A stretch of DNA of 64,000 nt from Bacteroidota bacterium. Lineage in GTDB: Bacteria > Bacteroidota > Ignavibacteria > SZUA-365. The translations under genes were made by a program, and so were the position numbers. The notes below the pieces were generated by a model, which was given only the letters and a program-made list of their open reading frames with translations, was not told the origin of the DNA and did no database searches. The stretch lies in assembly GCA_014860565.1 (NCBI GenBank), contig JACZJN010000068.1, forward strand, positions 122,447 through 186,446, given 5' to 3'. Below, piece by piece: positions 4,064 to 8,366 of the stretch (its first letter is position 1; each line of letters begins with the position of its first letter).

Positions 4064-6358
4064 CTACAGGTCAAAAAACAACTTGTACGTAACGCGCGCG
4101 TTGATCCCAGCCTCGGGGAGAATCGCCTTTACACGCGACAGGTGATTGCGGTAGGGCTGGTTCAGCATATTCTCCAACACGAACGACAGATTGTGTACTT
4201 GATTGCCGGTTGCAAAGGAATTTTGCACCGAAGCGTTGAGTGTCACGTATCCGGCTGTCGGAGATTCGAATGTGTCGACCCGGTCCTGCCGCGCGGCCAT
4301 CACCACTTCGAGTCCTGTGCGCCATGTGCCCAGGGTCAGATTCATGCCGACCGTTCCCTTCAGGGGAGGAATCTGCGGCAGTGGATCTCCAGTATCCTTG
4401 AATTCTCCATGAGTGTAGCTGAATGACGCATCCAGGCGCATCACCGACGTGGCATCCCACTCCGCCTGCAACTCCGCTCCGGTCAGCAACGCCGCGACTC
4501 CCTGGGTCGCGTACACCGGAAGGAACGTGGCGTAGTTGATTTCTCCGGTATTCCGCGGGATAATGAACGATGTGAGATCATTCCGGAACAGGTTGACGTT
4601 GAAAGAGAAATGCTCCCATCGATGGTACAGGAATAATTCGGCACCGATTCCTGTTTCCAAACCGAGATCGGGATTGCCTACTTCGTAGGAATAGGCAGCA
4701 AGGTGAGGCCCTTCGGAAAAAAGTTCTTCGATCGTCGGCATCCGATTCGACCGGCTTATGTTTGCGCCGAAATGTACGATGTTCGTGATCTGATACAGCA
4801 CGGTTGCCGAAAGTGAGACAGCGTCGAACGTACGCTGCCGGATGAAGCCGATGCGGGCATCCGGTTTCTCCTGCTGCGGAGTGATCTGATTCCAGGTATA
4901 GCGGACGGCTGCTTCAACGCTGAGGTCTCCGAACGAAAGCCGCTCGAACAGGTAAGGCGCCAGGTTCAGTGAGGTCGAGGGCATGGTGAACACGAACCCG
5001 CCAACGGTAAAATCCCGATAATCAAAATCGATACCGAACATTCCGTCGGTCACGGCGCCGATCGAGTGGTGGATCGCCCGGAGATCACCCGAATAATTCA
5101 CGATGCGAAACTCCGAACCAATCACGCCCTGCGCTTCGTATTCCTTGTGCCGGTAGTACGCACGAGCGAAATGAAATGTAAGATCATGCAGCAGCGGTGT
5201 ATCGAAGAGGTACATGCCCCGGGCATTCAGCTGCCGGCGCTCAAGCTCGATATCCACACCGTTCGGATGGGCACCGACGAAGCCGCCGGGCACGCCGTAG
5301 TCGAGCGAGAAATCCCGAAGCGACGCGCCGATGAAACCCCAGTCGTCGATATGGCTCGCCCCGGCGCTGTAGTCCAGAGATTGTGCATCGGAGTTCTTGA
5401 GCCGCCCTTCCGGTGTGCGCATATCGCCGGTCGATCTTCCGCTCACCTCCGCTCGAAGCATCACGGGGTCGAGCGGAACTTCCGTGTAGAACGATCCGAG
5501 CACGCCGTCGTTGGCGGATTCACCGTACACACCCAGCGAGCCGAGAATATTTTTATGCCTGTCCTGAGGAATCTCATGCCGAACGACATTGACGATGCCG
5601 CCCAGAGTCGTCGGTGACTGTGTGAGCACCATGGGACCGCGGAGCACTTCGATGCGTTCCACGGCAAATGGTTCGATGGTCACGGCGTGGTCTGGGGACG
5701 TGGCAGACAGATCGGTTGTCTTGCTTCCGTCTTCGCTGAGCACGACGCGGTCACCGCCGAGTCCGCGAATCACCGGACGAGCGGGCGCCGGTCCCATCGC
5801 GCGCATGGCGATCCCCGTCTCGTTTTTCAATGTCGCCGCGAGCGTGAGACCGAGTTCCTTGTCGAGTTCCCTGCCATTGAGCACCGACGAAAGCTCATTG
5901 GTAGATTCGATGCGCGAATGCATGTGCGAGCCGGTGACGATCACGGGAGCTGTTTCATATGCACGCGGCTGCAGATACACGATCATATCGCGTTCATCGT
6001 TGTCCGGAATTCCTATTTCCATGATCTGCACCTTGTACCCCGCACAATTGATGCTGAGGACGTAAGGACCGGGATTGAGCTTGCTGAAAAGGAATCCGCC
6101 ATCCGATTCCACCGACTGATCCACACCCGCCTTGGGATGATCCTTCGGGTGCAGAAACAGATAGGCTTCCGGCACCGCCTGGCCGCTTTCCGCGTCCAGA
6201 ACCGTACCGCGCAGGGCAGACTGCCTCTGCGCGTGCACCGTTGTGGGAGAGAGCATGGCCGTGATCAGGAATAGCAAGAGGGCGGCAAGGATTGACACCG
6301 GAGGCCAGGCGTGTGGGACACGCCTGGCTGTCGGGTGGTTTTGATGGTACATAGGCAT
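4064..6358 (-). CDS. TonB-dependent receptor, ZnuD-like (metal uptake), with N-terminal carboxypeptidase-regulatory-like domain
   Basis: Plug motif GPAPARPVIRGLGGDRV...DLSATSPDHAVTIEP resembles the ZnuD family. C-terminal NQPYRNHLSRVKAILPEAGINARVTYKLFF. Confidence 0.8.
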   Translation of the reverse strand: MPMYHQNHPTARRVPHAWPPVSILAALLLFLITAMLSPTTVHAQRQSALRGTVLDAESGQAVPEAYLFLHPKDHPKAGVDQSVESDGGFLFSKLNPGPYVLSINCAGYKVQIMEIGIPDNDERDMIVYLQPRAYETAPVIVTGSHMHSRIESTNELSSVLNGRELDKELGLTLAATLKNETGIAMRAMGPAPARPVIRGLGGDRVVLSEDGSKTTDLSATSPDHAVTIEPFAVERIEVLRGPMVLTQSPTTLGGIVNVVRHEIPQDRHKNILGSLGVYGESANDGVLGSFYTEVPLDPVMLRAEVSGRSTGDMRTPEGRLKNSDAQSLDYSAGASHIDDWGFIGASLRDFSLDYGVPGGFVGAHPNGVDIELERRQLNARGMYLFDTPLLHDLTFHFARAYYRHKEYEAQGVIGSEFRIVNYSGDLRAIHHSIGAVTDGMFGIDFDYRDFTVGGFVFTMPSTSLNLAPYLFERLSFGDLSVEAAVRYTWNQITPQQEKPDARIGFIRQRTFDAVSLSATVLYQITNIVHFGANISRSNRMPTIEELFSEGPHLAAYSYEVGNPDLGLETGIGAELFLYHRWEHFSFNVNLFRNDLTSFIIPRNTGEINYATFLPVYATQGVAALLTGAELQAEWDATSVMRLDASFSYTHGEFKDTGDPLPQIPPLKGTVGMNLTLGTWRTGLEVVMAARQDRVDTFESPTAGYVTLNASVQNSFATGNQVHNLSFVLENMLNQPYRNHLSRVKAILPEAGINARVTYKLFFDL

Positions 6359-6374
6359 GAGCGGTTGTCCCGGT

Positions 6375-6830
6375 TCAATCGATTGCGACAGGAATTTTCC
6401 CCGACCGGAAGTCGGAATGTCCTTCGTGCATGATGAAGAGTTCGAGTGTGGTCGCCCCCACCTTCTCGCCCCGGAGGTGAAATTCGAATTTCCCCGTCGC
6501 CGCGGAATCCTGCACTACCGTGAGCATGGTGGGATCTCCGATCTCCCATGCCAGGGTCTTATTTGGATCCGCCGGCGGATCGACGATCTGCTCATCGTCA
6601 TTGTAAAAAAAGACGTCGATGTGATCGCCGAGCACTCCGACCTTCGCACGAAGCGTATCCGCGGTTTCTCCTCGCAGGATCGCGGCGACCGGAATTCCGG
6701 AGGTGCGCAGGACGACACCGATCGCTTCGAAGTGGTCTTCCTGCGGAATGATCGGATCATCCTCTCCGCAGGCGGTGACAAGGAAGAGTAAAAAGAGTGA
6801 AAAAACGGGTAAAACAAATCTATTTCGCAT
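6375..6830 (-). CDS. His-containing lipoprotein, putative metal-binding partner of the downstream TBDR
   Basis: Likely ATG at 6830 (MRNRFVL), lipobox LVTAC then acidic GEDD. His motifs EDHFE and MHEGHSDF. Stop is 16 nt from the TBDR start. Confidence 0.7.
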   Translation of the reverse strand: MRNRFVLPVFSLFLLFLVTACGEDDPIIPQEDHFEAIGVVLRTSGIPVAAILRGETADTLRAKVGVLGDHIDVFFYNDDEQIVDPPADPNKTLAWEIGDPTMLTVVQDSAATGKFEFHLRGEKVGATTLELFIMHEGHSDFRSGKIPVAID

Positions 6831-7018
6831 GTGAAATCCTATTCGAATATTACTGACGATATTGTGATACATGCGGCATCCTGAAGGAATAGAGGCTTGC
6901 CGTAACGCACCACCGACACAACGACGAATGTCGCATGTGGTGGACTCTCACCCACGTCGGACGGGTTTGGGCCAGTTGCGGAGAGGCCACCGTCGGAGCG
7001 GGAACAGCTGCGAGGGGA

Positions 7019-7369
7019 TCAGACGAGCGAAGGGGGAGCGCGGGAACTGAGACGAGCGCCGACGAACGAGGAGCAATGCACCCAGCTTGCCGGACGAACG
7101 AGATGCGAGGCGTGGAGGACGACAGGAGCCTGCTGTGTACCGGGCTCGGCCTGGAACGCAAACACAAGGTAGTATTGCAGGGGACAAACAGCGGCGGTGT
7201 GTCCGTGAGGCACCGCGCCAGTGTGCACAGGCTGCAGTTCGTCCCCGCCGGGCCATGAATAGTCATGCTGGTGAATCGCGAGCAGGAGCACGAGCGCACT
7301 GTACGAACACAGCACCACCAGGGCGATGTTTCTCTGGAACCGCGATGATATGCTGCTGAACGTGTGCAT
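7019..7369 (-). CDS. DUF2946/CruR-like upstream leader protein with C-terminal RAPP arrest motif
   Basis: SD AGGAG before the ATG. Hydrophobic segment at aa 15-32, then HQHD, HTGAVPHGH, CPLQ, and RAPP (codons 7042-7031) three residues before the stop. Confidence 0.75.
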   Translation of the reverse strand: MHTFSSISSRFQRNIALVVLCSYSALVLLLAIHQHDYSWPGGDELQPVHTGAVPHGHTAAVCPLQYYLVFAFQAEPGTQQAPVVLHASHLVRPASWVHCSSFVGARLSSRAPPSLV

Positions 7370-7402
7370 GAACTCCTGCAGTGTAGCGATGTCTATAAAA
7401 TT

Positions 7403-7431
7403 AACTTACGCCGAAAATCGTTCCATGACAA
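7403..7431 (-). promoter_or_regulatory. Sigma70-type promoter for the RAPP leader/TBDR operon
   Basis: Minus strand TTGTCA (7431-7426), 17-nt spacer, TAAGTT (7408-7403). Confidence 0.55.
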
Positions 7432-7568
7432 TGAAAAATGCTGCACCCTTCCGAAATGCGCATGCAACGGGAACTCCTGTTCCCGGCATCCCGTTTTGCT
7501 AATGTCCATCAGCTCTCATTGCTTATCCGGCGGCAGCAACCGCCCTTCACATAGATCGGAAGACATTC

Positions 7569-8366
7569 ATGAAGAACAACGGTATTGCCAGCAAGAACGG
7601 GAACGGCATTTCCTCACGTTCCAACGGCCTCTCTCTCAACGGGAAGCACCTCTCTCCTGAAAACAGCACCCAAAACGGAAACGACTCCCACGCGCATATT
7701 CATGATCTAGCTGATATCATTGCGATGGGAGACCATCATGTCGCCACATCCATCGACACTCCCCTGCACGACGATGCGTTTGCGTTGAGTGAAGAGCAGA
7801 AAATGGAACTGATCGAAAGACATTTCGAACAGATTATGCGCACACTCGGTCTCGATCTCACCGATGACAGTCTCGCGGGCACACCGCATCGCGTTGCGAA
7901 AATGTTCGTGCGCGAAATCTTCTATGGGCTCGATCCGGAGAAAAAACCGAACGCAAAAGTATTCGAAAACAAGTTTCAGTACGGCGAAATGCTCGTCGAA
8001 AAAAACATCTCCCTTCACACGACCTGCGAGCATCATTTCCTCCCCATCGTCGGCAAGGCGCATGTGGCCTACATTTCCACCGGTACGGTCATCGGACTGT
8101 CGAAGATCAACCGCATCGTGGATTACTATGCAAGGCGTCCGCAGGTTCAGGAGCGTCTGACGATGCAGATCGCCGACGAAATCAAACGCGCCCTCAACAC
8201 CAACGACGTGGCCGTGGTGATTGACGCCAAGCACTTCTGTGTCGCGGCCCGCGGGATTCAGGATACGCACAGCAGCACGATAACCTCGGAGTTCAGCGGC
8301 CGATTCAAGGAAGACGCGACGAGGAAGGAATTCCTGCAATACGTTCAGATGCCCGCGGTACTCTGA
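7569..8366 (+). CDS. folE: GTP cyclohydrolase I
   Basis: DDSLAGTPHRVAKM, CEHHFLP, GLSKINR, RPQVQERLT, HFCVAARG. Confidence 0.97.
   Translation: MKNNGIASKNGNGISSRSNGLSLNGKHLSPENSTQNGNDSHAHIHDLADIIAMGDHHVATSIDTPLHDDAFALSEEQKMELIERHFEQIMRTLGLDLTDDSLAGTPHRVAKMFVREIFYGLDPEKKPNAKVFENKFQYGEMLVEKNISLHTTCEHHFLPIVGKAHVAYISTGTVIGLSKINRIVDYYARRPQVQERLTMQIADEIKRALNTNDVAVVIDAKHFCVAARGIQDTHSSTITSEFSGRFKEDATRKEFLQYVQMPAVL

Follow-up and report, generated by a model that had tools for sequence, protein, structure and literature searches.

A candidate metal-sensing arrest leader of the CruR/CutF kind ahead of a ZnuD-like receptor operon in a Bacteroidota genome

A short open reading frame (ORF) in the genome of a Bacteroidota bacterium probably encodes a nascent peptide that senses a metal and arrests its own translation. 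We analysed a stretch of 64,000 nucleotides (assembly GCA_014860565.1, contig JACZJN010000068.1), hereafter the window, in whose numbering all coordinates are given. On its minus strand, the 116-residue ORF116 (7369..7019; ATG 7369-7367, TGA 7021-7019) precedes genes for a lipoprotein and a ZnuD-like TonB-dependent receptor (TBDR). We propose, with a probability of roughly 0.6, that ORF116 acts in cis on the operon of these two genes, as a leader of the CruR/CutF (DUF2946) kind that arrests translation in response to a metal. ORF116 is confirmed as a real, conserved gene, and its fixed spacing, remote homology and synteny, the composition of the tract at its end and the ZnuD-type ligands of the receptor are likewise seen in the sequences; we infer that arrest occurs, which metal is sensed, in which direction the operon responds and that Rho takes part.

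A preliminary description of this DNA had listed a hydrophobic segment, several histidine clusters, a CPLQ motif and a terminal RAPP in the 116-residue product, and all of them are present in the sequence. The hydrophobic run (residues 15-32; 7274..7327, minus strand), read as a transmembrane (TM) segment or signal anchor, is preceded by R10 and R13 and followed by D36, D43 and E44; by the positive-inside rule, the predicted topology is N-in, C-out. Right after it comes the HxH motif H33-Q-H35 (7265..7273, minus strand), which provides candidate metal ligands, and further on the putative sensor motif H55-G-H57-T-A-A-V-C62-P-L (HxH-x4-C-P-L; 7178..7207, minus strand). The motifs read out in full are HQHD (33-36), HTGAVPHGH (49-57), C62-P-L-Q65, LHASH (85-89) and WVHC (96-99), with Q65 standing where the second cysteine of a CxxC would be. 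A linker of fixed length and unconserved sequence (residues 65-109; 7043..7177, minus strand) leads to the candidate arrest core R110-A-P-P113 (CGC GCT CCC CCT; 7031..7042, minus strand), after which only S-L-V and the stop codon follow. AlphaFold is confident of a single part of the protein, a helix at residues 7-33 that encloses the TM residues (predicted local distance difference test score, pLDDT, ~90); everything after it, linker included, is predicted to be disordered, and with the TM helix alone ordered the geometry of the metal site cannot be read from the model.

We found 27 homologues of ORF116, of 93-168 residues. Among billions of proteins, word-indexed and exhaustive searches turned up no more than a handful of relatives; within the window's order, the leader is present in 16 of the 30 genomes searched, all of one family (an uncultured Bacteroidota-type lineage), and the arrangement asd-folE / leader-lipoprotein-TBDR-sixA is conserved in these 16 genomes. 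The preliminary description had named the conservation of RAPP and of the histidines among orthologues as a check. RAPP passed throughout, with R[AG]PP lying 2-4 residues before the stop in 27/27 homologues. The histidines passed in part: H33 and H35 are invariant in the leader alignments A1 and A4, together with C62, R110, P112 and P113, and H55 and H57 are conserved to at least 90%, whereas H49, H86, H89 and H98, like C99, fall in variable sequence. Y23 and L26 are nearly invariant. The distance from cysteine to arginine (C62 to R110) is exactly 47 residues in all 24 single-cysteine members, which come from genera g1, g6 and g8; this equals 44 counted from the position of the second cysteine of a CxxC. 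Between genomes of the same synteny, the leaders share 31-45% identity and the receptors 56-76%, as would be expected if only a few positions of a leader peptide matter.

The three remaining homologues, G007 (CSQC), G015 (HEHCFIC) and G026 (CIIC), found upstream of distant lipoprotein homologues, are the only ones to carry CxxC, with 46-48 residues between cysteine and arginine, or 43-45 from the second cysteine. They come from three sister lineages, and each stands in front of the lipoprotein operon orthologous to that of the window; the operon of G007 includes the TBDR as well. The preliminary description had taken the loss of the second cysteine as a retuning of the switch. That idea found no support: CxxC and single-cysteine leaders both head orthologous operons, so the loss is unreadable as retuning and, to judge from these operons, marks no change of cargo.

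The place of the leader among known families emerged stepwise. The suggested comparison with DUF2946 drew no match for ORF116 itself, and a search of the whole genome with PF11162 returned nothing at E <= 10. Among the relatives in alignment A1, four of 17 match PF11162 at 16-20 bits, below its gathering threshold of 23.7 bits, in alignments that reach the last position of the profile. A profile search with the family then led to A2, a group from Alphaproteobacteria whose motif is HIH...HNEADCPLW...RSRAPP, in which the same HxH is invariant and CPLW stands in the place of the sensor motif (CPLC in P0028). Three A2 members exceed the PF11162 cut-off (P0028, 26.9 bits; P0019, 24.5 bits; P0027, 24.9 bits), and an hhalign comparison of A1 with A2 gave a probability of 96% (E = 4.6e-9 over 106 columns) with HxH, H-x4-C-P-L and RAPP all aligned. 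These profile matches place the leader family on a distant branch of the DUF2946 superfamily, and in this indirect form the suggested relationship stands. These proteobacterial single-cysteine leaders also precede ZnuD-like receptors (278-283 bits). ORF116 has the N-terminal TM segment, the RAPP position, the cysteine-to-RAPP spacing and the first place in an operon that characterise the DUF2946/CruR-CutF leaders, and it conforms to the general description of RAPP/RGPP arrest peptides (PMC12992588), in which a small membrane protein with R-[A/G]-P-P near its C-terminus is followed by a co-directional gene. As a side observation, DUF6153 (PF19650) matches the proteobacterial single-cysteine leaders P0015, P0016, P0019 and P0027 nearly as well as DUF2946 does, both near threshold, and these two Pfam families may be related.

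Arrest at ORF116 is suggested by precedent. RAPP and RGPP are the most robust arrest cores described and are refractory to elongation factor P (EF-P) (Fujiwara et al., PMC12992588); proteomes strongly avoid them, with the exception of C-terminal regions of small exported proteins encoded upstream of other genes (PMC12992588), and upstream ORFs with RAPP or RGPP precede TonB receptors in all Gram-negative phyla (Fujiwara et al., PMC12992588). CruR arrests in vitro, with its two proline codons placed by toeprinting in the P and A sites (PMC12992588). We count the robustness of these cores and the arrest of CruR as precedent for ORF116, where, by analogy, P112 would occupy the P site and P113 the A site.

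We propose the following sequence of events. The N-terminal segment of nascent ORF116 would insert in the membrane N-in, C-out, and present H33-x-H35 and H55-x-H57-x4-C62 as a His/Cys metal site. The ribosome would stall at R110-A-P-P113, 47 residues past C62, with P112 in the P site. When the metal, most likely zinc, is scarce, the stall would persist and the stalled ribosome would cover a C-rich, G-poor tract around the stop codon; Rho would thereby be kept from terminating transcription in the 188-nucleotide spacer, and the operon would be expressed. The stalled ribosome may also keep open a helix in which the final codons of the leader pair with the start site of the lipoprotein gene. In metal-replete cells, binding of the metal to the nascent chain would release the stall, the leader would terminate and uptake would be shut off.

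The Rho step has a counterpart in CruR, for which a Rho-utilisation (rut) site maps to a bubble in the leader where C exceeds G, and the stalled ribosome blocks Rho. In the window, the tract 6995..7054 (minus strand; C 50%, G 18%) is a candidate rut site by base composition; it takes in stall site and stop codon and extends 24 nucleotides into the spacer. The 60-nucleotide window with the strongest excess of C over G in leader plus spacer straddles the stall site and stop in 9/16 loci, the present one included, where it starts 26-51 nucleotides before the end of the stop codon, and an excess this high occurs in ~0.08-0.19% of all 60-nucleotide windows genome-wide. The rho gene is present in the genome. 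From the leader stop to the lipoprotein ATG, the spacer (6831..7018, minus strand) is 188 nucleotides long; its counterparts measure 78-197 nucleotides in the 16 loci and ~470 nucleotides in G005, a genome in which we also noted that the locus is split over two contigs with a near-identical overlap (L105, G005:C93; L150, G005:C385). A separate strong promoter inside the spacer had been named at the outset as an observation that would undo the proposal; neither a promoter-like nor a terminator-like site was found in 6831..7018. A structured spacer was considered and rejected for the window (z = -0.68 against shuffled sequence).

For the window we favour this Rho-dependent output. Its close rival keeps the same sensor and gives it a CutF-type output, in which the stalled ribosome melts a helix between the last codons and stop of the leader and the lipoprotein start, unmasking the ribosome-binding site, so that control would be translational and not Rho-dependent. 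The 5' arm of such a long-range helix (UUCGC..GU..GAUCC; 7016..7031, minus strand) takes in the last three codons, the stop codon and 3 nucleotides beyond, and the 3' arm (GGAUU..AC..GCGAA; 6824..6839, minus strand) spans the lipoprotein start codon at 6830-6828 and the purine-rich stretch before it. This helix appears in both the minimum-free-energy and the centroid fold of the window, and in most of the 16 loci the sequence around the leader stop is complementary to that around the next start, with different letters from locus to locus (for example GUCUUCAU/AUGAAGAC, UGCAUGAU/AUCAUGCA and CAUAAUCA/UGAUUAUG). Stop-to-start folding covered 12 loci and a duplex permutation test the 16 loci with a mapped lipoprotein start; in the latter, own-locus duplexes averaged -13.9 against -11.4 kcal/mol for mismatched ones (p = 5e-5). 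Where spacers are short (L107, L108, L111, L129 and L131), a modelled stall footprint cuts the cost of opening the start site by 3.5-7.5 kcal/mol, and unmasking is the mode of action of CutF itself (PMC9973294). In the window, however, the footprint has no predicted effect (7.40 vs 7.34 kcal/mol), which counts equally against the start-site opening that we allowed for above, and none is predicted elsewhere in the window's genus, where spacers run from 105 to 197 nucleotides. Moreover, other windows in the GC-rich leader pair with the start site equally well or better in many loci; over the 16 loci, free and stalled states differ with a Wilcoxon p = 0.05 and stalled and control footprints with p = 0.14; and stem-loop unfolding is considered to suit spacers of <100 nucleotides by Ozturk et al. 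(PMC9973294). We regard purely translational control at this locus as rather unlikely. Under both outputs a stall means that the operon is on, which suits an uptake operon repressed by its own metal.

Zinc is our best guess for the cargo and the sensed metal, and it remains a guess. It comes from the receptor, a protein of 764 residues (4064..6358, minus strand) with the Pfam domains Plug and TonB_dep_Rec. The preliminary description had placed a co-oriented operon of lipoprotein and TonB-dependent receptor downstream of the leader, and this was borne out: the genes lie on the same strand, and the best NCBIfam family of the receptor is ZnuD (NF038289), at 188 bits against a cut-off of 950 bits. 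Its best match in the PDB is likewise ZnuD (4rdr, E = 6.6e-27, vs 1e-10 for OprC); OprC and TonB-copper models match weakly as well. ZnuD binds zinc through Asp99, His100, Glu340 and His499 (PMC6288298). With an offset of 14 inferred between chain and mature numbering, the SPDHA motif of the receptor aligns to D99/H100 and its EGPH to H499; E340 lies outside the aligned stretches. EGPH is invariant in 15/15 full-length receptor orthologues and SPDHA in 14/15, the remaining one, G007, which stands behind a CxxC leader, having SSDHA with the D-H pair kept. A best solved relative that is ZnuD, with three of the four zinc ligands kept, makes zinc plausible, and the earlier guess of zinc was a reasonable one. 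The ZnuD-like receptors behind the A2 leaders point the same way, and we count the invariant histidines of the lipoprotein (below) and the lack of copper-linked genes in the loci on this side as well. In its fullest form, the proposal is a zinc-sensing nascent-peptide switch: a membrane-anchored His4/Cys site (H33, H35, H55, H57, C62) 47 residues from RAPP would bind zinc, release the stall and shut the ZnuD-type operon. We advance this version tentatively, with the odds somewhat against it. If true, it would give the CruR/CutF class its first directly testable member for a metal other than copper, and would show that the second cysteine of CxxC is dispensable for sensing.

The leader might instead sense copper, or nickel or cobalt, with the operon importing that metal and the likeness to ZnuD reflecting no more than the ancestry of the receptor. 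Every characterised DUF2946 member is copper-responsive, cysteine plus histidine makes a good copper ligand set, the sister leaders retain CxxC, a recognised copper motif, and the receptor reaches 188 of 950 bits for ZnuD while drawing the weak OprC and TonB-copper matches. For nickel and cobalt, there is the link made to His-only clusters of CutF-like proteins (PMC9973294). Copper is opposed by the margin of ZnuD over OprC among solved structures, ZnuD being by far the best match, and by the residues corresponding to D99, H100 and H499, which are identical in 15/15 full-length orthologues. In addition, genes for PCuAC, YcnI, PepSY_TM proteins or a multicopper oxidase are found in none of the 16 loci, and the CrtA copper receptors are described as a separate cluster, usually followed by PepSY_TM. 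We consider a metal other than zinc doubtful in this sense.

It is very improbable that ORF116 is a stable small membrane protein that aids the receptor, perhaps by carrying metal in the periplasm as a chaperone or by taking part in signalling, with RAPP as a structural or interaction motif. The conserved TM segment and His/Cys residues speak for this reading. Against it, the 45-residue linker keeps its length and not its sequence, the model predicts disorder everywhere past the TM helix, few tetrapeptides are as strongly avoided by bacterial proteomes as RAPP and RGPP, which arrest in every context tested (PMC12992588), and CruR and CutF are undetectable as proteins, CutF acting only in cis (PMC9973294).

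Several observations weigh against the arrest-leader interpretation or its parts. ORF116 has no Pfam or NCBIfam match even at E = 1, and it lacks the canonical CxxC, one of the published defining features of DUF2946. All characterised relatives sense copper; the receptor lies far under the ZnuD family cut-off, and the ligand E340 is not alignable. The rut assignment is one of base composition alone, inflated by the obligatory Arg/Ala/Pro codons of the arrest core, and the spacer of the window folds no better than shuffled sequence. Finally, G003, of the same genus, has lost the leader and kept the operon: in its locus (L151, G003:C6) the lipoprotein-receptor operon adjoins the divergent folE directly, with no leader ORF between them, so the leader is dispensable there.

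The first gene downstream of the leader (6375..6830, minus strand; ATG 6830, or 6872) encodes a lipoprotein of 151 residues with the lipobox LVTAC (C21). It is modelled as an immunoglobulin (Ig)-like beta-sandwich (AlphaFold pLDDT 86.9), and H33, H135, H138 and D140 are invariant. No Pfam family and no PDB sequence match was found for it, and Foldseek returned generic Ig-like folds only, nothing functional. Extra genes between the receptor and sixA in some relatives were set aside, being on the opposite strand and unrelated.

On the other side of the leader, folE (GTP cyclohydrolase I; 7569..8366, plus strand) is divergent, and the region common to the two units (7370..7568, minus strand) is where the leader promoter must lie; it holds weak candidates only. 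The preliminary description had credited ORF116 with its own sigma-70 promoter, and here the sequence did not agree: scanned with the consensus, the minus strand gave no promoter of sigma-70 type. Visual inspection favours TTGTCA-N17-TAAGTT (8/12 matches), and a second weak candidate is TAATTTTA at 7403-7396. The Shine-Dalgarno sequence claimed there exists as GGAG (7376-7373), only 3 nucleotides from the leader ATG and not conserved in relatives. A Bacteroidota-type TAnnTTTG box is absent from 16/16 leader-lipoprotein spacers; a weak version occurs upstream of the leader in 6 loci, the window not among them.

Most of the syntenic loci keep an element that we also noted upstream of folE, at 7469-7498 (plus strand). 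In the direction of folE its sequence is GGGAACTC-N14-CCGTTTTG (GGAAC-N17-CGTT), and on the strand of the leader ACAAC(G/C)..N..GAGTTCCC. The element resembles an extracytoplasmic function (ECF)-sigma-type promoter for folE (-35 GGAAC, -10 CGT), and could instead be an operator common to both divergent units. Rfam gave no match to it, nor any RNA family in 6300-7700. FolE itself begins with an Asn/Ser/Gly-rich extension of ~80 residues (7569-7810, plus strand) containing SHAHIHD and GDHH, its Pfam domain starting at residue 82. FolE depends on zinc, and most of the syntenic genomes that we examined place its gene back to back with the putative zinc-uptake operon.

Elsewhere in the same genome, outside the window, contig C79 carries a 112-residue ORF (C79:31631-31969, plus strand) whose product starts with a hydrophobic segment, lacks a His/Cys cluster and has three residues between RAPP and its end. 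About 50 nucleotides downstream lies an ORF of ~37 codons for a hydrophobic peptide; the 112-residue ORF may belong to a second type of arrest leader. Counted over all six frames of the genome, C-terminal R[AG]PP and A[AG]PP gave 10 vs 9, a result dominated by spurious ORFs and hence uninformative.

Leaders of this general type had been surveyed before. Ozturk et al. 2023 (PMC9973294) listed 5,334 CutF-like proteins, of which Bacteroidota contribute 19%, or 40% after normalisation for proteome numbers; they form 29 clusters with motifs of cysteine, histidine or both, with TonB-type genes as the second commonest downstream neighbour. The suggestion in the preliminary description that such a switch is undescribed in the Fibrobacterota-Chlorobiota-Bacteroidota (FCB) lineages was thus too strong, since Bacteroidota CutF-like leaders are in that survey. 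Its authors did not take all CutF-like proteins to be copper-specific, proposing nickel or cobalt for the His-only clusters; zinc goes unmentioned (PMC9973294). We searched the literature for a connection between DUF2946 and zinc and found no paper that makes one; a paper on the Caulobacter Zur regulon has a DUF2946 gene only among the indirectly down-regulated genes. What is novel in the ORF116 family is a candidate variant of a known switch, with a single cysteine, a histidine-rich sequence, Pfam scores below threshold, a lipoprotein gene before the receptor, a putative zinc-type cargo and a host from the FCB group.

Metal-sensing arrest peptides are a recently found regulatory layer of which only the copper-responsive CruR and CutF have been studied, and current family models miss the present leaders entirely. 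The leaders form a natural series, in which the same uptake operon stands behind CxxC or single-cysteine, histidine-rich leaders at a constant distance from sensor to arrest core. This makes them a clean system for asking which residues bind metal, and the family can be used to test whether fixed spacing underlies stall release and whether the mechanism extends to zinc.

The closest parallel is CruR (Bp2923) of Bordetella pertussis (DUF2946/PF11162), which stands upstream of the copper receptor BfrG/CrtA (PMC9426467, PMC12914433), and the CruR-like architecture proposed in the preliminary description matches at each point. ORF116 and CruR have in common an N-terminal export or TM segment, a sensor motif followed by RAPP at nearly the same distance (44 residues from Cys motif to RAPP in ORF116, 45 in CruR), RAPP three residues before the end, the first place in a TonB-receptor operon, a long spacer (188 nucleotides at ORF116, 162 at CruR), a tract at the 3' end of the leader in which C exceeds G, and a poorly structured peptide. 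In CruR, regulation suffered when five residues were added. Unlike CruR, ORF116 has a single cysteine (CPLQ) in place of CxxC, with an invariant HxH after the TM segment and another HxH before the cysteine; it falls below the Pfam threshold, a lipoprotein gene separates it from the receptor, and its host belongs to the FCB group. Moreover, the receptor is ZnuD-like and not CrtA-like, and a PepSY_TM gene is absent.

CutF of Rhodobacter capsulatus (cutFOG; PMC9973294, bioRxiv 10.1101/2025.02.05.636593) is likewise exported, carries a metal motif, ends in a proline-rich stall motif and acts on the gene directly behind it. In the short-spacer relatives of the ORF116 locus, the 3' end of the leader pairs with the next start site as in the cutF-cutO stem-loop; the 188-nucleotide spacer of the window is longer than those thought fit for unfolding of that type. 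CutF has CxxxC, and copper induces its stall to turn on a detoxifying oxidase, whereas the ORF116 operon, serving uptake, should be repressed by its metal. At the level of the receptor, ZnuD of Neisseria meningitidis (PDB 4rdr) has ligands identical to the aligned residues of our protein, in the plug at SPDHA (D99/H100) and in the barrel at His499; the window's receptor differs in an additional N-terminal CarboxypepD_reg-like domain and in its partnership with a small, Ig-like, histidine-bearing lipoprotein. In a wider circle stand ApdA, ApdP, ApcA, SecM and the Streptomyces lividans set (PMC12992588), which, like ORF116, are small membrane or secreted proteins with R-[A/G]-P-P near the C-terminus and a co-directional gene downstream. 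Within the ORF116 family, the two strongest cores, RAPP and RGPP, replace each other freely. Those other peptides monitor export or have unknown function, whereas ORF116 carries a conserved His/Cys site at a fixed distance from its candidate arrest core and lies ahead of metal-uptake genes.

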